Below are positions 6,957-40,800 of a stretch of DNA of 64,000 nt, in pieces (position 1 is the stretch's first letter; the number at the start of each line of letters is the position of its first letter). A program made the translations under genes and the position numbers. Origin of the DNA: a virus (taxonomy: Duplodnaviria; Caudoviricetes); IMG/VR virus record IMGVR_UViG_3300021255_004000, positions 195,308-259,307 of that record, one strand, 5' to 3'. The notes beneath the pieces are model-generated. The model saw only the letters and a list, made by a program, of their open reading frames with translations. It did not search any database and was not told where the DNA came from.

Positions 6957-7525
6957 TATTTACCTCCAATGATTTCATTCAGTGTTTTTGGTCCCCACTC
7001 CATAGCAGGGCACATAATACCAACATTGTACATTTTGACTTCGTGGCCGACAACATCTTCGTAATCTTTCTTCCACTTTTCAATCATATCACAGTCGTGC
7101 GGATTTGTATGCACGTGACCGTAAAGGTGAACAGTATGACCGTGATAAACACCATCGAACATAAAGATCGGATAGTGTGAAAGAATTACAGTGTTGCCTG
7201 CGTTGTCGATATGTTTGTGGTAACCTTCGTACACATCAACAAACTGTCTGCGAAGTTCTTCGTTCTTCCACAACTTATAGTCGTGGTTGCCTGTAACCCA
7301 ATGCTTTTTGCCGCGAAGGCGAGCAATCAAGCAGCGTGTTTCATAAGGATTTGTCCAAGAAATATCACCAAGAATCCAAACATCGTCTTCATCTGAAACG
7401 CGTTCATTCCAAATACGAATGATTGCTTCGTTCATTTCGTTAATGTCTTTCCAAGGACGATTGTCAAAATTGATTGCATTTGCGTGTGAGAGATGCAAAT
7501 CTGAAATATAAAACTCTTTACCCAT
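6956..7525 (-). CDS. calcineurin-like metallophosphoesterase
   Basis: SDLH, LGD, GNHD, SHYP, GHVH motifs. Confidence 0.88.
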   Translation of the reverse strand: MGKEFYISDLHLSHANAINFDNRPWKDINEMNEAIIRIWNERVSDEDDVWILGDISWTNPYETRCLIARLRGKKHWVTGNHDYKLWKNEELRRQFVDVYEGYHKHIDNAGNTVILSHYPIFMFDGVYHGHTVHLYGHVHTNPHDCDMIEKWKKDYEDVVGHEVKMYNVGIMCPAMEWGPKTLNEIIGGK

Positions 7526-7540
7526 AATTGTATATTAACC

Positions 7541-7816
7541 TCAGTACTCTTTCAGCTTTTCTTCCAATGCAGATTTTGCTTTCAATTCTTCAAAGTTGTC
7601 AGGTGTAATAACAACACAATGAATGCAGTGGTCAAAGCCTTCAACTTTCTTATCAAAGCAATGTCTGTTGCCTGACTTAATCTGCTTCTTTGTTACGAAA
7701 CAGCGATGTTTTTCGCAATAGCAGGCAAGGTTTTCTTTGTACCCAATCCCGTTGTTTAATGTCAACACATAATCTTTTTTGTATTCAGGATTAAACTTAA
7801 GATCGTTAAAGTCCAT
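7541..7816 (-). CDS. hypothetical protein (Cys/His-rich)
   Basis: 91 aa; AGGAGG RBS. Confidence 0.55.
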   Translation of the reverse strand: MDFNDLKFNPEYKKDYVLTLNNGIGYKENLACYCEKHRCFVTKKQIKSGNRHCFDKKVEGFDHCIHCVVITPDNFEELKAKSALEEKLKEY

Positions 7817-7818
7817 TT

Positions 7819-8280
7819 TTAGTCCTCCTTTATCAGATTGTAGCCGCCGTCAACCCAAGTAATGTTTCCATCAACTCTTGAAAGTCCCTGTGCGCCGTCA
7901 ATGTCATATACATAATCGACCAATTTGTCAAGGTCGAATGCATTTCTTGGAAAGTTGATGAAACCATATTCATCAGTAAGCTTTTCAACAATTTCGTTAT
8001 CAGAGAGATCAGAGAATGTATCACTGTCTTCGATACGGAAGTCGTTGATGTAAACCTCATCGAAGAAGTTGATTAAGCCGCCGTTGTCAGCAACAAACTT
8101 GTTCAAGCTTTCATCAGAGTAATCATTTTCAAAAAGCTCTCTGATATCTTTGCGAGCTGCTTCCTCAAGTTCGTCATCATCGTAGCATTTGTAAGTGTCC
8201 CCGTTGATAGTGAAAGTTGTATCATCGATCTGCTCGATGTCACCTTCATATTGATTCTTTAGGGCTTCAAGCTTATCCAT
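7819..8280 (-). CDS. highly acidic early protein
   Basis: About 42 D/E versus 13 K/R in 153 aa; first gene after a class E promoter. Confidence 0.65.
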   Translation of the reverse strand: MDKLEALKNQYEGDIEQIDDTTFTINGDTYKCYDDDELEEAARKDIRELFENDYSDESLNKFVADNGGLINFFDEVYINDFRIEDSDTFSDLSDNEIVEKLTDEYGFINFPRNAFDLDKLVDYVYDIDGAQGLSRVDGNITWVDGGYNLIKED

Positions 8281-20069: not shown

Positions 20070-21047
20070 ATGCAATATGATGTAATTGCAGTTGATATGT
20101 TCAACTTGTATTATCGCAAGAAGAACAGTTCACTGGAAAAGGATCCTATATCTATTGCACGGAATATGGTTACTTTTATCAATAACGAGGTTATGCAACA
20201 CCTCACTGATGATGGTAAGTTGTTTCTTTTATATGACCCAATTCCTAAAACGGATTTAGGATTATCAAAAACTTTTAAGTATACTGAGCGTCAGGAAATT
20301 GTACACGCTTACAAAAAGAATCGTACTCACGACAGAAACTGTCTTACAGTTGTTGATCTTGTAAGAAAAAACTTTATCCACCGTGGTGGCAATGTTATTT
20401 CAGTAATCAGCGACAAATATGAAGCTGATGACTTTATGGAAAGTATTGTCAAAGAAAACGAAGGTAAAGATATTCTTATGATTACCAACGATGAAGATTG
20501 GTGTCGTTATTTGTCACCAAAAGTTGAAATGATGAATACAGATAATTGGCTTAATCTTTTTACTGTTGATTCATTCAGAGAGAAGTACAACTTCATTCCT
20601 TCAATCGCAGGAGTTTGTGTTTGGAAGGCTTGCTTTGGCGATGGTTCTGACAATATCAAAGGCGCACTTCAGGTTAAAGGCCTTAGGAAAGCAAATGATG
20701 TTAAACTTAAAGCTTTTGAATATGTTAAGTATCTTGGTGCAAATCAGGATGTTACTATTAAGCATATTGAAAGCTTAAAGAATCTTAGTCATTCAGACCT
20801 TTTGAATAAGCAAAATAAAACAGTTGAAGAAGAGTTTATTTACGCGCTCAATATGTTTGACCCCAAGTATGAGGTCACTTCTACTTTCTTTAGCAATCTT
20901 CGTGTTATCCAATCAAGATGCGATGATTATTTCAAGTTTGCAACAGCGAAAGAAGTAGATGAAAAGTACAACATTCTTATTGAAAAGACTTTGGGATTTA
21001 TCAAAAAAGAAGACCGTACTTTTAAGTTTGGAATGATTAAAGGTTAA
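20070..21047 (+). CDS. 5'-3' exonuclease / T4 RNase H-like flap nuclease
   Basis: IAVDMFN, YKKNR, YEADD, TNDEDW, GDGSDNIKG motifs. Confidence 0.85.
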   Translation: MQYDVIAVDMFNLYYRKKNSSLEKDPISIARNMVTFINNEVMQHLTDDGKLFLLYDPIPKTDLGLSKTFKYTERQEIVHAYKKNRTHDRNCLTVVDLVRKNFIHRGGNVISVISDKYEADDFMESIVKENEGKDILMITNDEDWCRYLSPKVEMMNTDNWLNLFTVDSFREKYNFIPSIAGVCVWKACFGDGSDNIKGALQVKGLRKANDVKLKAFEYVKYLGANQDVTIKHIESLKNLSHSDLLNKQNKTVEEEFIYALNMFDPKYEVTSTFFSNLRVIQSRCDDYFKFATAKEVDEKYNILIEKTLGFIKKEDRTFKFGMIKG

Positions 21048-21065
21048 TTATTCCTCGGAGGTTTT

Positions 21066-22049
21066 ATGTTGTATATTTTTGGCGATGTCCACTTGTCTGC
21101 GATGAATCCTTGGAATGCGGATGTCGGCGAAAACTTTATAAAGTGGTTTGAAGAGTTTTGCAAAGAAACAGCAAGAAAAGATATTACAGAAAGAAACATT
21201 CTTTGGCTTGGTGATATTACTGAAAAGGATGTCAACCCTGGCGATGTTATCGACCAAGAGTATCGTATCTTCAAACTTTGTTCAGATTATTTCGCAAATA
21301 CATATGTAATTATGGGCAATCACGACTTAAAGTTGTATAAGAAAAAAGCTCAGCATTCATTGAAGTTTTTGCGAAATCTTCCGAATGTAAATATTATTGA
21401 TAGTCCTCGTGACATTAAAATCAATGAAACAGTTGTAAGAATGTTGCCACATTTACGAGTTGAAGGTAAGTCACTTTCAGATTATTATTCACAACTTCAT
21501 TTCCGCACCGATGCTGATTTGGTTGTAGGACATTGGGCAAAGATTGACCCAAATCATCCAAACTGGGGAGGTGTTGATGTTTCAAATATGCGGGGAAAGG
21601 ATTTCTGCTTAGGCCACATTCATACAAGAATTGAGCCTTGTTACACAGGCTCTATTTTTGCAAACAAGTCAACTGAAGTTGGCGAAAGAGTTTATAAGGT
21701 TTATAACAATGGACACGAAGTTCAAAGTGTTGTACTACCCAACTTCCTTGAGTACAGAACTGTAAAGTATCCTGAAGATCCAAACACAGATGTAACAAGT
21801 CCTTATACGACTTTGGTTTTCGATGTTGAAAATGTTGTTTCTGTTCAGCAGGCAAGAGTTCAATATCCAAACATTTATGTTCGTGGAACTGTTAAGAAAA
21901 AGATTGACCGTGAATTGACAGAGTCAGTTAAATCATCTGATGTGTTCTTGTATAAGAATAACCTTCAGGCATACAATGATTGGTTGAAAGAAACGAAGTA
22001 TCCTATCGGAAGGCGTGCTTCGGCGATGATAAATGAATTGTTGAAATAA
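21066..22049 (+). CDS. Mre11/SbcD-like (gp47-like) recombination nuclease
   Basis: GDVH, LGDI, GNHD, GH, LGHIH, YTGS motifs. Confidence 0.82.
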   Translation: MLYIFGDVHLSAMNPWNADVGENFIKWFEEFCKETARKDITERNILWLGDITEKDVNPGDVIDQEYRIFKLCSDYFANTYVIMGNHDLKLYKKKAQHSLKFLRNLPNVNIIDSPRDIKINETVVRMLPHLRVEGKSLSDYYSQLHFRTDADLVVGHWAKIDPNHPNWGGVDVSNMRGKDFCLGHIHTRIEPCYTGSIFANKSTEVGERVYKVYNNGHEVQSVVLPNFLEYRTVKYPEDPNTDVTSPYTTLVFDVENVVSVQQARVQYPNIYVRGTVKKKIDRELTESVKSSDVFLYKNNLQAYNDWLKETKYPIGRRASAMINELLK

Positions 22050-22053
22050 GTTC

Positions 22054-22078
22054 AAGGCGGCGGAAAGCCGCCTTTTTT
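22054..22078 (+). terminator. intrinsic terminator
   Basis: AAGGCGGC-GGAAA-GCCGCC-TTTTTT. Confidence 0.8.
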
Positions 22079-22101
22079 ATTGTGTTAATATAATTTCTGA
22101 G

Positions 22102-23181
22102 ATGTGGCAATTCAGGCCACGAGGAGTTAAAGTGTTAACGATAGACAATTCACAAGAATTGACTGTTCACGACTTTATTAAGAATAAAGAACATCAACCT
22201 TTCAAAGGTTGGCGAACAGTTGCAAAAACCGAAAACTTCGGTCTTATCTTTGGTTGTACTGCTCCAACATTTGCTGGAATGTTGAAACAGGCAAACTTCA
22301 CTGAAGCTGAATGTGATGAGTTCATACAGCTTACAAATAACACACAGGCATATAACGCTGCACTTGCAAACAATATGGGCAGTAAGCATCCTATGAAAAC
22401 TGCTGATGTAAAGTTTATAGTTGTTGCAGATGCAATGCGTACATCATTCTTTGAAACATATCAAGGCCTTATGGGTCGTATCAAGCGAGAGCAGGCTTTT
22501 GCTCTCGCGCACGGTTATGTTCGTTCTTGGCACGGACCTGTAAGACATCTTGCTGAATTAAGATATTTATCAGTTTCACCTAAAGGTGAATTGCAGGGAG
22601 CAGACCGCTCTCTTTATTCTAAAATGTTTTCCCATCTTTTGAACAACGCGTGTAACTCAACAATTCAGACAATGGAATCCCGCATCGCTTTTTCAACTTG
22701 GGTAAACATTGCAAAGTATCTTGCTCTTTGGGGACTTAAATCATATTGTTGGAACAACATCCACGACTCTCTTGACTTTTACATTTACAAGCCTGAACTT
22801 GAGTTGGTTGTTGCATTAGCTAATGCTTGTGCTGCTTGGGACCGTGAACCTGTAAAAGGCATTCATATGTCATTTGATGCAGAGATTTCTGATCTTCAAG
22901 ATTATGAACATCGTTGTGCAACATATTACAAAGCAGGTGTTGGTGTTGATGTTTTGCCTATTGAAGAAGCGATTGAACATTATAACAAAAAGAATGGAAC
23001 AAACCTTAAGTGGTATGGTTGTGATTGGGAATATGACAAGTATGCTTCAAATCGACTTTCAATGTATGAGAAGTATTGTCAGTTAAACGGTAAAGAAAAT
23101 GTTGATGAATGGCTTGAACGATGGGGCGGTCCTGTAATCAATCAGCCTGCAATGGCTACTAGGAGAGTTGTAAATGGCTAA
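22102..23181 (+). CDS. family A DNA polymerase, C-terminal fragment (motifs B and C)
   Basis: RTVAKTENFGLIFG (motif B), GYVRSWHG, NSTIQ, NNIHDSLDF (motif C); probable start GTG at 22132 after GAGGAG. Confidence 0.88.
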   Translation: MWQFRPRGVKVLTIDNSQELTVHDFIKNKEHQPFKGWRTVAKTENFGLIFGCTAPTFAGMLKQANFTEAECDEFIQLTNNTQAYNAALANNMGSKHPMKTADVKFIVVADAMRTSFFETYQGLMGRIKREQAFALAHGYVRSWHGPVRHLAELRYLSVSPKGELQGADRSLYSKMFSHLLNNACNSTIQTMESRIAFSTWVNIAKYLALWGLKSYCWNNIHDSLDFYIYKPELELVVALANACAAWDREPVKGIHMSFDAEISDLQDYEHRCATYYKAGVGVDVLPIEEAIEHYNKKNGTNLKWYGCDWEYDKYASNRLSMYEKYCQLNGKENVDEWLERWGGPVINQPAMATRRVVNG

Positions 23182-23905
23182 GACAGAAGCAAAGAAATCA
23201 AAAATTGAAACACCTATGACAAAGTCAGTTGCAAGACGCGTTAAGATTCAAAAAGGCGAGCCTATTATTGAGCATAAAGAAGAAAAGCCTGCCCCAAAAA
23301 AACGCAGAACAAAGGCTGAAATCGAAGCAGAGAAGAGAGCAAAAGCTGAACGCAAAGCAGAGCTTGCAAGAAAGAAAGCAGAGCGTGAAGCAAAGAAACT
23401 TGCTCGTGAACAGAAGAAAGCTGAAAAAGAAGCCAAGATAAAAGCAAAGGCAGATGCTGTTGCTGCAAAAGAAAAAGAAAAAATTGAACTTGCAAAGCAG
23501 CAAAAAGAAATTGATAAACTTAAGGTTGACACAAAGAAGTATTGTAAGCCTGTCCCAATGACAAAGGCAGATAGAGACCACATCAAAAAGATTATGGCAA
23601 ATCCTGACTTTAAGTTGTCAATGTGTACACAGACTTATGGTAAAAGTACTTTCAGAGTTCTGAATCATCGTGAAAATGAACTTGTCATTTCTGTTGATGA
23701 TGTTTATTATTTTTATAATAAGACAACTGATAAAGGAATCAACTTTGGACCAATCTTTGAAACTTGGCTGTGCACAAGTAAACGGATTCCTTGGACAGAT
23801 CCAGAACCTGAAGTTAATATACCAAAACAAGAAGTTGCTCAGAAGGTTGTTGTAACAGATGAGCAGAAAAAAGCAATTATGAGAAAGATGAGAGGTAGAC
23901 GATAA
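23174..23905 (+). CDS. Lys/Ala/Glu-rich basic protein
   Basis: KKRRTKAEIEAEK... charged helical region; translationally coupled between the two polymerase fragments. Confidence 0.65.
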   Translation: MAKTEAKKSKIETPMTKSVARRVKIQKGEPIIEHKEEKPAPKKRRTKAEIEAEKRAKAERKAELARKKAEREAKKLAREQKKAEKEAKIKAKADAVAAKEKEKIELAKQQKEIDKLKVDTKKYCKPVPMTKADRDHIKKIMANPDFKLSMCTQTYGKSTFRVLNHRENELVISVDDVYYFYNKTTDKGINFGPIFETWLCTSKRIPWTDPEPEVNIPKQEVAQKVVVTDEQKKAIMRKMRGRR

Positions 23906-23906
23906 T

Positions 23907-25922
23907 ATGCCGTTTATGTTCGGGGGCATCCGTGAAAATGCCAAAGCAAAAGACTTGAAAAAAGCTGAGGATATGATTGATGTTATCGTTTGTGATCATC
24001 AGTCTGATGTAGGTGATTATTACATCTTCTTGCTTGATAAACAACCTACTGATGCAATTAAGCAGCTTATATTAAATCGTATCCGTGATGAAGGATACAC
24101 AAACTATATGGTACTTAACGCTGTTGAGTGTAAGTATCATAAAGAAGATTTGAAAGGTGAAGGTCTTACTGACTTTATGGTAAAGCACCGTTCAACTTGG
24201 CGTTCATACTTATATGATTACGAAGGCAAACACTGTAAAGCGATTATGTGTTTTGGTCCTGCGATGTATTCAATAAATGCTTCATCTGACATTATGACAG
24301 GTGACTTTTATGATACGAAGATGTTGCACCCATACTATTATATGGGTCACGAAATCTTTAAGTATGATACATTTGTTTTCCCAGTTGATGGGATTGATGA
24401 CCTTTACCCAGTTTTGAAAAACTCAAGTAACACTGTCAACTTCAAGACAAGATTCTTCTTCGAACAGTTGAAGAATATGAAGAAAGAAAAATATTCTTGG
24501 CAGCCCAACTTGAATGAACCGAAGTATGTTGTAATCAACAGTAAAGAAGAAGCTGATGATATGTTCAGACGCAATATGAATATGAAGTTGGTTGCATTCG
24601 ATACTGAAACAAACGGTTTGAAGTTTTATAAAAACTACATTCACTGTCTTACAATCTGTTGGGACGGCATCACAGGTTATTATGTACCTTGGAAGTTTGT
24701 TGACCCAGTTCTCTTTGAAGAAAATGTAATGTCGTGTGAACACCGTACTGGTGCTAACCCAAAGTTCGACTTGAAGTTCTTTTGGCAACACGGTGTATCA
24801 AGACGCGTAAATGTTACAGATGCAACGGACCGACTTGCGCATTGTATTACATCTGAGGTAAAGTCAGGTTTGAAGCCGCTTGCATATCGTTACACTCCAT
24901 TTGGTGGTTATGACATCAAACTTGACAAGTGGAAGAAAGAAACAAAGTGTGATGACTATACAAAGATACCAACAGAGATTTTGTCAAAGTATGCAACGAT
25001 GGATGCGATTGCAACTTGGCGTATTCAAGTTGAACTTTGGTTGCTTGTTGATGAAATCGACAGAAACTTTCCAAATGAAAAATATCCTGAGTGGACAATT
25101 CGTCGTTGGTATGAAACACAATGTATGGAAATCTACAAGGAAATCTGTAATGTTGAATGGCGCGGTATTTATGTAAATGTTGAACTTATGAATAAGTATC
25201 GTGAAGAACTTACAAAAGACCTTGATGAAAAAGAAGCAGAACTTCGTAAGATATGGGGTGTAGGTCCTGACTTCAACATTGGCTCAACAACTGAAGTTGG
25301 AAAGTTGTTTGAAAGATTGGGATGGGAATGTTTCGGCCGAAATGATGCTGGAGTTTATTTGACAAATGATGAAGCGATGGGAGCTTGGATAAGACAGAAT
25401 ATGCCAGGCGCTGCATTGCTTGCAGAATGGCGTACTGAAAGAACATCAAGAAACTCATTCTTAGGTATCATTGATGAAAAAGGACAGGAAACAGGTTGGT
25501 TGCAATATATTTATCACGATGAGAAAGATGGCAATCCTGAAGAAGGTGGTTCATATCGAGTTCAGCAGTCTTATCTTGTAATGGGAACGGAAACTTATCG
25601 TTTCATCGGTAAAGATCCAAACTTCCAAAACATTCCTACACGCAACAAGTATGCAGGATATGTAAAGAAATGTATTGATACACCACCTGCTGATTTGTAC
25701 ACAATCGTAGGTGACAGCGGAAAAGAGTACAACCTTGCTGAGTTTGAACTTGTTTACACAAACGAGGGTTATAAAACAGCAAAGGAATGTTTCTCAAATA
25801 TGCGTCGTTTGAAGTTTATTGAAAATGACCCAGAACATCCTGCAGTGTTAAGATGCGGTTTTGACAAACAAGAAGATGGTTCTTTCAACACTCCAGATCC
25901 TAAAGTTTGGTTTGGAGCATAA
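23907..25922 (+). CDS. family A DNA polymerase, N-terminal fragment (UDG-like domain?, 3'-5' exonuclease, thumb)
   Basis: AFDTETNG (Exo I), NPKFDL (Exo II), YATMDA (Exo III), FNIGS, TETYRF..KDPNFQNIP; ends before motif A. Confidence 0.88.
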   Translation: MPFMFGGIRENAKAKDLKKAEDMIDVIVCDHQSDVGDYYIFLLDKQPTDAIKQLILNRIRDEGYTNYMVLNAVECKYHKEDLKGEGLTDFMVKHRSTWRSYLYDYEGKHCKAIMCFGPAMYSINASSDIMTGDFYDTKMLHPYYYMGHEIFKYDTFVFPVDGIDDLYPVLKNSSNTVNFKTRFFFEQLKNMKKEKYSWQPNLNEPKYVVINSKEEADDMFRRNMNMKLVAFDTETNGLKFYKNYIHCLTICWDGITGYYVPWKFVDPVLFEENVMSCEHRTGANPKFDLKFFWQHGVSRRVNVTDATDRLAHCITSEVKSGLKPLAYRYTPFGGYDIKLDKWKKETKCDDYTKIPTEILSKYATMDAIATWRIQVELWLLVDEIDRNFPNEKYPEWTIRRWYETQCMEIYKEICNVEWRGIYVNVELMNKYREELTKDLDEKEAELRKIWGVGPDFNIGSTTEVGKLFERLGWECFGRNDAGVYLTNDEAMGAWIRQNMPGAALLAEWRTERTSRNSFLGIIDEKGQETGWLQYIYHDEKDGNPEEGGSYRVQQSYLVMGTETYRFIGKDPNFQNIPTRNKYAGYVKKCIDTPPADLYTIVGDSGKEYNLAEFELVYTNEGYKTAKECFSNMRRLKFIENDPEHPAVLRCGFDKQEDGSFNTPDPKVWFGA

Positions 25923-26066: not shown

Positions 26067-26091
26067 AAAGGCGAGCCCTTAAACTCGCCTT
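26067..26091 (-). terminator. intrinsic terminator (AAGGCGAG family)
   Basis: AAGGCGAG-loop-CTCGCCTT. Confidence 0.7.
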
Positions 26092-26503: not shown

Positions 26504-27337
26504 TTACTTCCAGTTTGTTACAATTCTTCCATCAGGATGTATAATGATATTTGAATATCCATCTTTATAATCAACTGATGTTTGTCTTGTCATATCTCCG
26601 AGGCAAACCCTTGCCCACTTTCCTTTATAACGGAATGTACAGTATACGAAGAAGTCTCCAATTCTGAATGTTCCTACTTCAATTTCAGGATCTTCTCGCA
26701 ACTGATTCCAAATATCAACACTGTACTCATCGTTGCCGATTTCTGTAAGGAATCTGAAAGAAAAGCCTTTCACATTCTCATACTTATCCATCATCTTTTT
26801 GACATTTTCAACAGTCATTGTGTTGTTGTCAAAAATAGTTTGTAAGCAGCATCTGTCATCGAACAGTTCAATGTTAGGATGTACATAATCATTTGAACTG
26901 ATATTGATAACAGGTATGTCAAGCTTCAAAATGTCAGGATTGTAAAGAGTTGTGTTTACAGAAAAGAATTTTCTTTCACCATTCTCACAAAAAGTATCGT
27001 ACAACTTTTTCACGTGTTCAATGTAAAGCGAAGGTTCTCCGCCTGTAACTGAAACACGAGCTGTCGGATGATTTTTCAAAACTTTTTTAAGAGCTTCAAT
27101 TTGGGCATCAAAGTTTTTGATACCTTTCATTGGGTTCTGTCTTTCAAGGCAAAATGGACAGTGGTAAGGACATTCTCTTGTCATAATAATCTGACAGTTG
27201 ATGTTGTAATAAAGCGGGCGACCAAACTCTGTGGAATCTTTTCGCTCGTTCATACGATATTCAAAGTCCTTCTGCATTTCATCTTTGATGAACTGATAAT
27301 TCGGTATGACCGGAATGAACGGTAATTTGCTGCTCAT
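26504..27337 (-). CDS. radical SAM protein
   Basis: CPYHCPFC (CxxxCxxC), VTGGEP. Confidence 0.85.
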   Translation of the reverse strand: MSSKLPFIPVIPNYQFIKDEMQKDFEYRMNERKDSTEFGRPLYYNINCQIIMTRECPYHCPFCLERQNPMKGIKNFDAQIEALKKVLKNHPTARVSVTGGEPSLYIEHVKKLYDTFCENGERKFFSVNTTLYNPDILKLDIPVINISSNDYVHPNIELFDDRCCLQTIFDNNTMTVENVKKMMDKYENVKGFSFRFLTEIGNDEYSVDIWNQLREDPEIEVGTFRIGDFFVYCTFRYKGKWARVCLGDMTRQTSVDYKDGYSNIIIHPDGRIVTNWK

Positions 27338-28763: not shown

Positions 28764-29807
28764 TTAAGCGGAAACCTTTTCGCGGTAAGTGTTGAGCGTA
28801 AGGTTGATAAGTTCTCTCTGAAGAAGATTTACAGTGTTTTCAGTGTAGTTCAACTTCTCACGAGAACTTTGGAAGTCAAGAGAACCAATTGGGAAGTGAA
28901 GTACCTTGAAACGGTTGCGGCGAACATAATCGCGGGTTTTGCTGTCATCAGGGAAAACCTGAGCCAAGTCGATGTCGTAAGGAACGCCACCCATTTCTGC
29001 AACCATATTGTTTGAAAACTGAGATGAAACATTTCGATTGAATGCCTTGAACTCGTAAGGAACTCCAGCATCCTCATAATCTTCCTTATCAGCATAGTAT
29101 GAAAGTTCAGGAATATCGAGAGTGTTCTTCAGGTATTCACGAACAACGATTGCATCATCAAGAGAGTTGAAACCTGCGGCAGAAAGCCATTTTTCAACTC
29201 CGCCAAGGATTTCAGGCATCTGCATTGCAAACAGGAAAACAGGAATGCTTTCACGAATGAAAGATGAGAAGTCTTTCTCGGCAACCGAGAAGGAAACTTT
29301 TGTGCCTGTATCGCTGTCACAAGGTTCTGTACCAAGGCGCTTTTTGCAAGGCAAGTCCTGTGAGTTTTTGTAGAAGACAACAGTTGATTTAATGCCGTTT
29401 TTGCAACTTTCAACTGTAAACATTCTTCCGTTTTCCTTGTAGGCGAAAGGAGTTTTTGCACCAAGTCCCAAACCACCGATCTGTGAATTGTCGTTGCGTT
29501 TGTTTGAAGCGCCGTAGGTACCGAAAACCTTGATGATCTCTTCCTCGGTCATACCGATGCCAAAGTCCTTGATGTAAAAGACAGGCTCAACTGAGTTTGC
29601 AAAGTGTACCTGAACAGGCTTCTGAACACCTGCAGCAGTATTTGCATCGATTGCGTTTGAAAGGATTTCGCGGATAATTGACTGAATAGGATTTGTGTAC
29701 ATTTTGTCAGAAAGAACACTGTACAACTGGGCGTTCATTTCCATACCCATTACTTCTTCGTCTTCGATGTTTGTATCAACATTGGAGAGCTGAGTATTCA
29801 TAATCAT
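28764..29807 (-). CDS. rIIA: rIIA-like protein, N-terminal GHKL ATPase part
   Basis: LSDKMYTNPIQSIIREILSNAIDA, DFGIGM, YGASNK, GGLGLGAKTPFAY, SREKLNY. Confidence 0.8.
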   Translation of the reverse strand: MIMNTQLSNVDTNIEDEEVMGMEMNAQLYSVLSDKMYTNPIQSIIREILSNAIDANTAAGVQKPVQVHFANSVEPVFYIKDFGIGMTEEEIIKVFGTYGASNKRNDNSQIGGLGLGAKTPFAYKENGRMFTVESCKNGIKSTVVFYKNSQDLPCKKRLGTEPCDSDTGTKVSFSVAEKDFSSFIRESIPVFLFAMQMPEILGGVEKWLSAAGFNSLDDAIVVREYLKNTLDIPELSYYADKEDYEDAGVPYEFKAFNRNVSSQFSNNMVAEMGGVPYDIDLAQVFPDDSKTRDYVRRNRFKVLHFPIGSLDFQSSREKLNYTENTVNLLQRELINLTLNTYREKVSA

Positions 29808-38304: not shown

Positions 38305-40800
38305 ATGAAGAGATTTGATACAGAAAGCAAATTAGCAAGAATGTTGACAGGCCTTAGAAAAGATTCAAATTGGCCTCTCATTTTACAAAAAGGCACAGTC
38401 GGCAATGTTCTTAAAGCAATAGCAGAATCTGGAGCTGAAGATGACCGTTATATGGAGCAGCTTTACCGTGAAAAGAAATGGAAAACTGCAATGGACTTTT
38501 CATCATTGGAAGCTCAGGGTGATTTACTTTCATATAAGAGACAGTTACCAAACTCAGCAATCGGTTATGTAATTGTATCACACACTGATGCAGAAGGTAA
38601 GGACCGTCTTTCTTATTATGGTTCTTATTACTATGATCTTGATGCAGAGTCTGATTATGATGATATCACAAAAGCTGAAATAGCTGATGAATCTGCAAGA
38701 CACGCACTTGTTCCTTGGACTTGTGATAAAGGCTATTCAATTCCAAAAGGAACTCGCTTTGTAACAGGCAGCGGTGTTGAGTTCTTTTCAACCGAAGTTG
38801 TATCTTCAAAAACCTTAAAGAAAAAATATTCTGAAATGAACGAGGTTGACCTTGAATCATTTCAGTCACGCGGTGGCTGGAAAGGTATCAAGTATCTTAA
38901 AATACCTGTAATGCAAGGCATTCAGAAAACAGTTTCTATTGGCCGAACAACTGCAAACTCTCGCTTTCAGTCATTTGTTTTACCAACGCTTGATGTTGAT
39001 GCTGCATCAAATGAGGTATCTTGCAATTACTTTTCTGTATATGTTCAGCCTCAGAATGGCGAGCCTGTAATCTTTACAGAAATTGATAAACTTTCAAGCG
39101 CTTCATCTATTGATAATGTTTTTGAAAAGTCAATCTTAAAAGATGAAAGCGGCATTAAAATTAAGTTTGGTGATGGTCTTAGTGGAGCAATCCCTCCTGA
39201 AGGTGTTGTTTATGTTAAGTATGTTGAAACACTTGGTTCAGCAGGAAACATCAATGCCAAATATCAAGTAAACACAATGATCCTTCCAACAGGATATAAA
39301 ATTAAGGACCCAAGAACTGACACATACGCAACATTCTTGTCTTGTACAAATGTTTGTGCAATCAGTGGCGGTCGTGATATTGAAGATGTTGAGAATTATA
39401 AAGTTAATGCTCCTACTTCATACTTGAAGTCATACACTATTGCAACAAACAAAGCATACTTAAATGCTATTGACAAGTACTCTCCTCTCAATCTTTTGCA
39501 TTGTAAAATCTTCCCAGATGAAAGTATAACTTCTGAGCAAGTTGATACAACAATCGGTGAAGATGTAAAAGAAGAAGTTGCAAATGAATTAAACACAATC
39601 TCAAGTAACATCAATATTACAGCAATGCTTTCAAACGGTGAAGAAATCCCTGATGAAGAAGTTGATGATACATTCTTGAATCCTTTACAAACATCAATTT
39701 ATGATATGAAAGGACCTTCAGATACAATTAAGTTTGTTCAGCCAAACTTGATTGAACTTGTAACATCTTTCAAGATTACTTCTTCTTCATATGATTATAC
39801 TGAAGATGAAATTGCAGAACGCATTAAAGAAATCATTGCTGAAGATTATGATATTTTTAATCAAGACTTCAATGAACCAATTTATACTTCAAAGTTGATT
39901 GCTTTGGCAAAGACATTCAAGTTTACTGACACAGTTTCAGTTATCACAGAAGCTGTCGCAAAAATTGATAATGACAACATCGACACAACTTATGTAAGCA
40001 ATATGAATGATTATATTGTAAGCATTCCGTTCAGCTTTGATGAAGTTTATATGAGTGACTTGATTAACCAAGGTTTTAAGGACTGTACAGTAAATGCTGA
40101 TTATTTGTTGAAAGTTGATTTGGAATTCATCAATGATTCAACTAAAACAGATAAGAACCGCACATTCTTCTTATATGACAATCGCATTGATGAAAGTGGT
40201 GAAACTACTATTTTCGATGCAAAGACAAAGTTACTTGACGGTACAACAAGTGAATATGTTACTCAATCAAATGAAATCGACTATACAATGTATGACAATG
40301 CAGGTACAGATTTTGATAATCTTCAGTGTCGTGTTGCACAGTTTGATACGATTGATAAAATTACTGATGCAGCTTATATGAAACAGTTGAAAGACTTTAG
40401 TAAGGCACCTACAGAGATTCGTCCTTATGAAACAACATCATCTGGAGCATATAAAGAATACTCATCTTCAACTGATGATTCTATTGTTGAGGTTGACAGC
40501 CGCTACTATAAACAAAATACAAAGTTTGTAAACGGAGTCGACATTGATTTTAATATGAATGAAGATGAAAAGACTTTGACAGGTACTTTCTATATTCCAC
40601 TTTCTTACTTTGAGTTTAGTTCAATCAAAAACTTTGACAAAGACAGTGATATGGAAAAACTTAGATCATTGATTAAGCAGTACATCAATTTGAGAGTTTA
40701 TGCTCAGCCTAAGATTCAGGATATTGCACCTCAGAACATCAATGATATTATATATGTTGATAAAAACTATATAAAAGTTGAAAAAGTACAGACTAATTAA
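38305..40800 (+). CDS. baseplate wedge protein (gp6/BaseplateJ-like)
   Basis: IPKGTRF, IKFGDGLSGAIP, Y.ETLGSAGN, SGGRDIEDVE...AP. Confidence 0.8.
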   Translation: MKRFDTESKLARMLTGLRKDSNWPLILQKGTVGNVLKAIAESGAEDDRYMEQLYREKKWKTAMDFSSLEAQGDLLSYKRQLPNSAIGYVIVSHTDAEGKDRLSYYGSYYYDLDAESDYDDITKAEIADESARHALVPWTCDKGYSIPKGTRFVTGSGVEFFSTEVVSSKTLKKKYSEMNEVDLESFQSRGGWKGIKYLKIPVMQGIQKTVSIGRTTANSRFQSFVLPTLDVDAASNEVSCNYFSVYVQPQNGEPVIFTEIDKLSSASSIDNVFEKSILKDESGIKIKFGDGLSGAIPPEGVVYVKYVETLGSAGNINAKYQVNTMILPTGYKIKDPRTDTYATFLSCTNVCAISGGRDIEDVENYKVNAPTSYLKSYTIATNKAYLNAIDKYSPLNLLHCKIFPDESITSEQVDTTIGEDVKEEVANELNTISSNINITAMLSNGEEIPDEEVDDTFLNPLQTSIYDMKGPSDTIKFVQPNLIELVTSFKITSSSYDYTEDEIAERIKEIIAEDYDIFNQDFNEPIYTSKLIALAKTFKFTDTVSVITEAVAKIDNDNIDTTYVSNMNDYIVSIPFSFDEVYMSDLINQGFKDCTVNADYLLKVDLEFINDSTKTDKNRTFFLYDNRIDESGETTIFDAKTKLLDGTTSEYVTQSNEIDYTMYDNAGTDFDNLQCRVAQFDTIDKITDAAYMKQLKDFSKAPTEIRPYETTSSGAYKEYSSSTDDSIVEVDSRYYKQNTKFVNGVDIDFNMNEDEKTLTGTFYIPLSYFEFSSIKNFDKDSDMEKLRSLIKQYINLRVYAQPKIQDIAPQNINDIIYVDKNYIKVEKVQTN

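Follow-up and report, generated by a model that had tools for sequence, protein, structure and literature searches.

Known split polymerases and related phage enzymes

The division of a family A DNA polymerase (PolA) between genes has been described in S-SBP1-like T7-type cyanophages, in which the exonuclease and polymerase parts are encoded apart, were modelled as a non-covalent complex and were called the first PolA split (Czernecki et al., 2023, PMC10201439). The break in these cyanophages lies between the exonuclease and polymerase domains, and the two pieces are adjacent, stand in the normal order and carry no docking domains. In contrast, the large, uncultured phage considered here appears to possess a PolA that is cut inside the polymerase domain, on either side of the catalytic motif A, into three pieces that are permuted and scattered. 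It is represented by a 64,000-nucleotide (nt) stretch of the virus record IMGVR_UViG_3300021255_004000 (Duplodnaviria; Caudoviricetes; positions 195,308-259,307 of the record), hereafter the window, in whose coordinates the polymerase operon was read. The C-terminal piece (C piece, with motifs B and C) is encoded ahead of the N-terminal piece (N piece, with the exonuclease), and motif A would be supplied by a third, free-standing gene (A piece) outside the window. In the literature searched, the only PolA split described is the one between the exonuclease and polymerase domains, and the search returned no paper describing a PolA in three pieces, or one with breaks flanking motif A and its parts permuted and scattered.

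A three-piece PolA does not, all the same, open a new category, since there are established examples of polymerases encoded by several genes and of fragmented phage enzymes with docking tails. In PhiKZ, the family B polymerase (DNAP-N/DNAP-C) has been shown to form a stable complex from subunits that are encoded by separate genes (Basu et al., 2026, preprint, PMC13648687). It is a large-phage, multi-gene replicase like that of the window phage, but it belongs to family B and consists of two pieces, and no Hint-like clasp is mentioned in the abstract. In Aeromonas phage Aeh1, an essential enzyme is divided between genes (NrdA-a/mobE/NrdA-b); its activity depends on extra tails that appeared with the break and serve as interaction domains, and an active site is rebuilt from the fragments without splicing (Crona et al., 2011, PMC3045599). 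Aeh1 NrdA differs from the present case in being a ribonucleotide reductase of two pieces in the normal order, with a homing endonuclease still lying between them, whereas no endonuclease was seen in the window. Split inteins in "fractured genes" and in cyanobacterial DnaE provide a further parallel, since replication genes are broken, halves of the Hint fold stand at the ends and the fragments may end up at different loci (Dassa et al., 2009, PMC2677866). These inteins are of full size, keep their catalytic residues and splice, whereas the remnant in the window phage is too short and its residues are not conserved.

Matches were obtained to 939 phage records, and the 30 matches listed all fell at 24-28% identity; the two of these for which taxonomy or name was checked (Vibrio phage X1 and its species VspSw1) belong to the Demerecviridae. 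Among characterised proteins the nearest in sequence is the T5-like PolA of Vibrio phage vB_ValS_X1 (QKN88405.1), which is 27% identical over N-piece residues 196-632 (E-value, E, 3e-20) and shares the HDS form of motif C as well as the exonuclease-plus-polymerase layout. It differs in being a single chain of 866 amino acids (aa) with motif A ("KDLTTAEVYY") in place, without Hint-like tails and without a separate motif A gene.

Polymerase pieces in the window

The T5-like family A polymerase of the window phage is probably built of three polypeptides, each translated on its own and assembled with the others without covalent linkage. Its gene anatomy, its family and the conservation of its catalytic residues are matters of direct observation. 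The C and N pieces lie in a plus-strand operon (22132-25922) of tightly packed open reading frames (ORFs), in the order C piece, lysine-rich ORFan, N piece (Table 1), and the preliminary description of the window was correct in placing the C piece (motifs B and C) first, an unrelated basic protein second and the N piece third. The C-piece stop and the start of the middle gene overlap by 8 nt (ATGGCTAA), the N-piece start codon lies 1 nt past the middle-gene stop, and Shine-Dalgarno sites precede the starts of the middle gene and the N piece. Each of the three polymerase ORFs (the A piece having been read in relatives) possesses its own start, stop and Shine-Dalgarno site, so that the polymerase domain does not lie on a single polypeptide.

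The C piece comprises, in this order, a putative N-terminal docking strand, (V)LTIDNSQEL, the fingers with motif B, the palm with motif C and the last palm strand, and a C-terminal extension of ~90 aa; it matches Pfam DNA_pol_A (PF00476) at profile positions 203-356 of 381. R38, K42, F50, H221 and D222, the second catalytic Asp (numbered from ATG 22102), are invariant in C-piece homologues and S223 is nearly so, HDS standing where motif C is of the HDE type and F50 occupying the usual Tyr position of motif B (RxxxKxxxFxxxYG). Although the gene had been taken to begin at 22102, GTG 22132 is most likely its true start, since GAGGAG stands 5 nt upstream of it, no such site accompanies ATG 22102, and most homologues are of 349-350 aa and start MLTID. 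Ten C pieces of unusual length were inspected at their N-termini, and no leader as long as an intein was seen in them.

The N piece runs from a ~200-aa N-terminal region through the 3'-5' exonuclease, the thumb and the start of the palm (as far as PNFQNIP...KKCIDTPPAD) into a putative docking tail, and it matches DNA_pol_A at profile positions 2-149. The earlier statement that it ends just past PNFQNIP has to be corrected, as it continues for 94 residues, which are predicted to form a folded tail. Exo I (FDTE), Exo II (NxxxD) and Exo III (YxxxD) are intact, with D232, E234, N284, D288, Y362 and D366 invariant; residues 1-206 (23907-24524), which carry no Pfam domain, are also conserved and include several invariant residues (Y67, G84, W98, G117 and others). 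Key residues of the exonuclease and of motifs B and C stay unchanged in homologues as distant as ~39% identity, an invariance which argues that the genes are in use. As intact ORFs, the three pieces occur in >100, ~30 and 40 protein clusters, respectively (the last figure being that of the A piece).

Motif A (DxSxxExR type) is present in neither of the two window genes, and the three-gene set has it only by way of the A piece outside the window. Its absence from both pieces and from the window, noticed at the outset, is borne out by the profiles, by conservation and by translated searches. About 55 profile positions in the motif A region (Pfam DNA_pol_A 150-202; PHROG 17 1004-1058) are covered by neither piece, the coverage of PHROG 17 being 541-1003 for the N piece and 1059-1228 for the C piece. 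Across 30 aligned N pieces, neither Asp nor Glu is invariant at any position of the tail, and searches of the six-frame window translation with motif A segments and with a hidden Markov model (HMM) of the relatives' motif A gave noise only (best HMM E 0.43).

Candidates for motif A within the operon were examined and rejected. VLTIDNSQELTV at the head of the C piece ("LTIDNSQELTV"), picked out by eye, has D, K, E, T or R at the Asp position, and most homologues start MLTI. TIVGDSGKEYNLAEFEL in the N tail ("KEYNLAEFEL", D603) was discarded on conservation and fold despite its BLASTP alignment to the T5-like motif A. The middle basic protein (ELVISVDDVYYFY) belongs to a small ORFan family without PolA relatives, its Asp varies, it is absent in one relative of the window phage (L019, described below), and the A piece was found elsewhere.

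The free-standing motif A gene

Between the N and C parts of a normal PolA stand ~55 residues, which form the motif A strand (bearing the catalytic Asp), the helix after it and then the DxH helix; in the window phage these would lie on a third gene of 138 aa, situated outside the window and beside a DnaB helicase gene. The A-piece family consists of 40 clusters of free-standing proteins of 113-141 aa, none of which has a Pfam match. D23 (the motif A Asp), D72 and H74 (the DxH motif) are invariant, and within the motif D[FY]xSL[EQ]xR, S26, L27 and R30 are invariant in 21 free-standing pieces and remain nearly so when fused and T5-like sequences are added. The commonest cluster, P0135, is of 138 aa and has 410 members, one contig being labelled gut metagenome; in its contigs the A piece is found next to DnaB, a helicase-loader-like gene and thymidylate synthase.

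Bridging sequences connect this family to PolA. In one relative (L010, 329 kilobases, kb), the polymerase is encoded by two genes in the normal order (N piece, LytB-like gene, C piece), and the N piece retains WLMVTGDFASLQFR, a DAH motif and the beta-rich tail; P0135 matches the tail of this contiguous N piece at E 2e-14. Against Bst PolI, the same N piece can be aligned as far as query residue 598 (chain residue 364), where WLMVTGDFASLQFR is placed by residue count. In P0072 and P0063 (L012:8001-9500), the A segment is fused to the C-piece C-terminus, giving a chain of 499 or 492 aa in which motif B and motif C are followed by motif A, DxH and the beta tail, that is, a permuted polymerase core. 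P0135 matches the C-terminal extension of P0072 at E 4e-29, and no N piece was found within 8 kb of the P0072/P0063 locus.

Linkage of the A gene to split N and C pieces is observed in further relatives. L019, whose C piece is 51% identical to that of the window, has the order C, N and then an adjacent 122-aa A gene ("YFILTCDFNSLEAR...LDLH"), with no middle gene. G002 (188.7 kb, 65% complete by CheckV) carries C, middle gene and N at 93.4-97.1 kb in the window's order, with an N piece 74% identical to the window's, and its A piece (141 aa, 38,973-39,377, E 9e-36) lies on the other strand, 54 kb from the C/N pair. No synteny was found between the first 6 kb of the window and G002. For the phage's own genome, an index search with P0135 pointed to one candidate stretch of 417 nt, alike in 23 of 31 short words and situated 84,421 nt ahead of the first window position. 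This position would put the A gene ~106 kb from the C piece. The A-piece loci L022-L025 have no nucleotide overlap with the window.

The surroundings of the A piece in relatives also show some regularities. DnaB stands just upstream of it in P0135 contigs, and in the P0135 clade and G002 it is directly followed by a gene of 135-136 aa (L022:7160-9803, L021:1070-1911), for which PF10686 (YAcAr) is recorded in the P0135 contigs. In L010, a full-length LytB/IspH-like gene (7154-7996; PF02401, E 1.7e-61) lies between N and C, where a homing endonuclease might be expected.

Predicted assembly and the docking ends

The chains modelled together were residues 390-671 of the N piece, the full-length C piece and, as partner, P0135, with an alignment supplied for every chain. 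In three runs the interaction prediction score from aligned errors (ipSAE) came to 0.82, 0.84 and 0.84, whereas the best of 3 controls reached 0.28; the calibration mark for this score was reached by 58 of 80 solved complexes and by 2 of 110 mismatched pairs, counts which apply only roughly here. The runs share at least 85% of their contacts, and the predicted local distance difference test (pLDDT) of the partner is at least 74. The contacts with the lowest error join A residues 16-21 (the strand ending in D23) to C residues 225-230 (the second strand of the motif C hairpin) and 262-263 (the last palm strand), which we take to be the arrangement of a normal PolA palm. Furthermore, in the three-chain model A residues 5-6 pair with N residues 597-598, and N residues 590-652 and C residues 7-35 fall in the predicted interfaces with the A piece. 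The model supports the binding of the three pieces to one another, and it is from the model that their manner of assembly is inferred. In the mechanism proposed, the short N-terminal strand of the A piece would dock on the N piece's Hint-like tail, the beta-rich tail of the A piece would receive the N-terminal strand of the C piece, and the A-piece motif A strand would pair with the C-piece motif C hairpin, completing the two-metal active site.

When modelled alone, the N tail (residues 586-671) has a mean pLDDT of 83.8. A fold search against 48,161 representative chains gave 26 matches at Z of 2 or more, of which 23 are inteins or the hedgehog Hint domain; the best is the Npu DnaE split intein (Z 4.7, root-mean-square deviation, rmsd, 6.8, 55 residues aligned), the Z values being low with only part of the fold present. 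MchDnaB-1 (Z 4.1, rmsd 3.1, 48 aligned), NrdJ-1, VidaL and gp41-1 are among the others, and Foldseek returned no match for the tail at E<=0.001. With low Z values, a partial fold and a negative Foldseek search, the tail is taken as Hint-like and not as a proven intein relic. A comparison of the N tail with the A tail by hhalign, made for paralogy, gave the expected register but at E 0.04 and a probability of 1.3%, too weak to establish paralogy. The few non-intein matches to the N tail include PDB 8yo3_C, which represents phage T4 topoisomerase II (central domain; Z 3.3, rmsd 3.8, 48 aligned; Foldseek probability 0.54), an enzyme whose gene is likewise divided by a mobile cassette.

Weighing of alternative explanations

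The intein likeness of these ends invites an account in which they are active split inteins, and N, A and C are joined after translation into one canonical chain by trans-splicing. The fold of the N tail matches almost only inteins, most A pieces keep at their start (M..KKKEN|C, as in "MIVKKKEN|C") the Asn plus Cys or Ser that would mark the C-terminal end of an intein, N-piece Cys589 is nearly invariant, and ...YVKK joined to CREGG... would resemble a normal PolA. Nevertheless, such joining is improbable. The candidate intein amounts to only ~83 + 8 residues (~91), whereas known mini-inteins have ~120-130 residues or more. In block B, the His of "DPEHP" gives way to N, D and other residues in relatives; the L019 type loses both Cys and Asn (VKRTITCPP, MKIIKKPK|C); neither the Asn nor the +1 residue is constrained at the A-to-C junction, which lies at the C-piece start (K, E, T and R occur); and the A-tail Cys after "GTF", found in other members, is Val in the window clade. 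CIDTPPADLYTIV aligns to T5-like PolA sequence and is therefore not an intein start, and Cys589 lies within a stretch aligning to T5-like PolA. Because the splicing residues are not conserved, docking is probably non-covalent. It is quite possible, and held here tentatively, that the docking ends are split-intein relics which have lost splicing and now act as non-covalent clasps at two junctions (N-A and A-C), freeing the genes to move and recombine.

In an enzyme of only two pieces, motif A would come in degenerate form from the N tail (D603 and E606 of "TIVGDSGKEY" being examples of candidate residues), and the 138-aa gene would have another function. Such an enzyme would accord with BLASTP and MAFFT, both of which set "KEYNLAEFEL" against the T5-like motif A "KDLTTAEVYY". 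Yet position 603 is D, S, K, T, E or P and position 606 is E, K, D or I, neither being conserved, the N tail models as a Hint-like beta domain, and the A piece has a canonical motif A and DxH and co-occurs with split N and C, which makes a two-piece enzyme highly unlikely. Little more can be said for decaying remnants of a broken polymerase gene in a phage that replicates with another enzyme: the scrambled gene order would suit decay, but the pieces are intact in many clusters, their catalytic residues are invariant to ~40% identity, starts and stops are tightly coupled and Shine-Dalgarno sites are present, and this reading is judged just as hard to credit. Lowest of all stands a permuted order produced by misassembly or by a circularly permuted contig, its probability being close to negligible, and nothing was found in its favour. 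Five independent IMG/VR contigs, drawn from different samples (73-99% identity), likewise carry C, then the middle gene, then N, so that C before N is not a product of misassembly, and L019 has C directly followed by N. Misassembly, a cryptic motif A in either ORF and the lack of a third piece, which the preliminary description had itself named as threats to its reading, were all looked into, and none was found to hold.

Some points weigh against a three-chain polymerase. A profile of the free-standing A pieces alone found no PolA match in the PDB and gave a spurious alignment with a T5-like polymerase; because this profile misses PolA structures, the assignment of the A piece to PolA rests on the bridging sequences L010 and P0072 and on the motifs. 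The complex score may reflect the model's memory of intact PolA, because such structures are known, which is a risk for the halves of split genes, and the modelled A piece (P0135) is a database cluster representative and not this genome's own sequence. The proposal of a PolA of three polypeptides with its motif A gene elsewhere, already made in the preliminary description, is supported by the free-standing A family, the linkage in L019 and G002, the look-alike in the phage's own genome and the three-chain model.

Middle protein and neighbouring genes

The middle protein is rich in Lys, Glu and Ala in its N-terminal half and has a conserved domain of ~90 aa (a helix and a five-stranded sheet) at its C-terminal end, and its homologues number 16 representatives among 1.84 billion proteins. 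The model of the C-terminal domain has a pLDDT of 80 (93-97 over residues 11-80), and searches with this fold gave nothing at E<=0.001 in Foldseek, a best Z of 4.3, with matches to unrelated structures, in a wide structural comparison and nothing usable in a feature search. Since it is absent in L019, the middle protein is not an obligatory part of the polymerase; our guess, from its charge and position, is a DNA-binding accessory.

Table 1. Features of the polymerase operon and its flanking signals (window coordinates).
Feature	Position	Strand	Remarks
Terminator-like hairpin, intrinsic	22054..22079	+	8-bp stem with 6 GC pairs, then T-run; closes upstream exonuclease/phosphoesterase genes
C piece	22132..23181	+	349 aa from GTG 22132; 359 aa from ATG 22102
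Motif B (O-helix), RTVAKTENFGLIFG	22213..22254	+	C-piece residues 38-51; R38 and K42 invariant; N45 and F46 nearly invariant
Motif C, H221-D222-S223 (HDS, T5-like type)	22762..22770	+	Residues 222-230 contact the A piece in the complex model
Middle protein, 243 aa	23174..23905	+	No Pfam/PHROG family; not a polymerase piece
N piece, 671 aa	23907..25922	+	Exonuclease, thumb, palm start, putative docking tail
3'-5' exonuclease domain, N-piece residues 207-381	24525..25049	+	PF01612, E 2.8e-12
N-piece tail, residues 596-671, beta-rich, Hint/intein-like	25692..25919	+	Model pLDDT 83.8; without conserved catalytic carboxylate or splicing residues
Bidirectional terminator-like hairpin	26068..26091	.	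Separates polymerase operon from convergent minus-strand genes

A TATAAT-like "aatataatt" lies between the 22054-22079 hairpin and the polymerase operon. Upstream, at 20070-22049 (+), a 5'-3' exonuclease (PF02739; PHROG 107) and an SbcD-like metallophosphoesterase (PF00149; PHROG 100) are encoded, separated from the polymerase operon by the terminator. The convergent operon contains a radical SAM protein at 26504-27337 (-) (PF04055, E 5e-11) and a GHKL-type ATPase at 28764-29807 (-) (HATPase_c_3, E 2e-9), and a 435-aa protein without family sits between these two genes.

Implications for phage replication and polymerase evolution

In the arrangement proposed, the catalytic palm itself is divided, as one of the two metal-binding aspartates would reside on a 138-residue protein encoded ~100 kb off, beside a helicase gene. 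Pfam and PHROG are blind to the A piece; therefore, annotation pipelines would label such phages polymerase-defective or miss the subunit. For enzymology, the family would provide a natural test of how much cutting of the PolA palm still allows assembly. With respect to evolution, the same parts are found as N+A and C in the normal order, as C, N, A, as C and N with a distant A, and as a C+A fusion in which motif A follows motif C. If the tails are indeed dead intein halves, the family would record a splicing element decaying to a docking tag, which may interest protein engineers.

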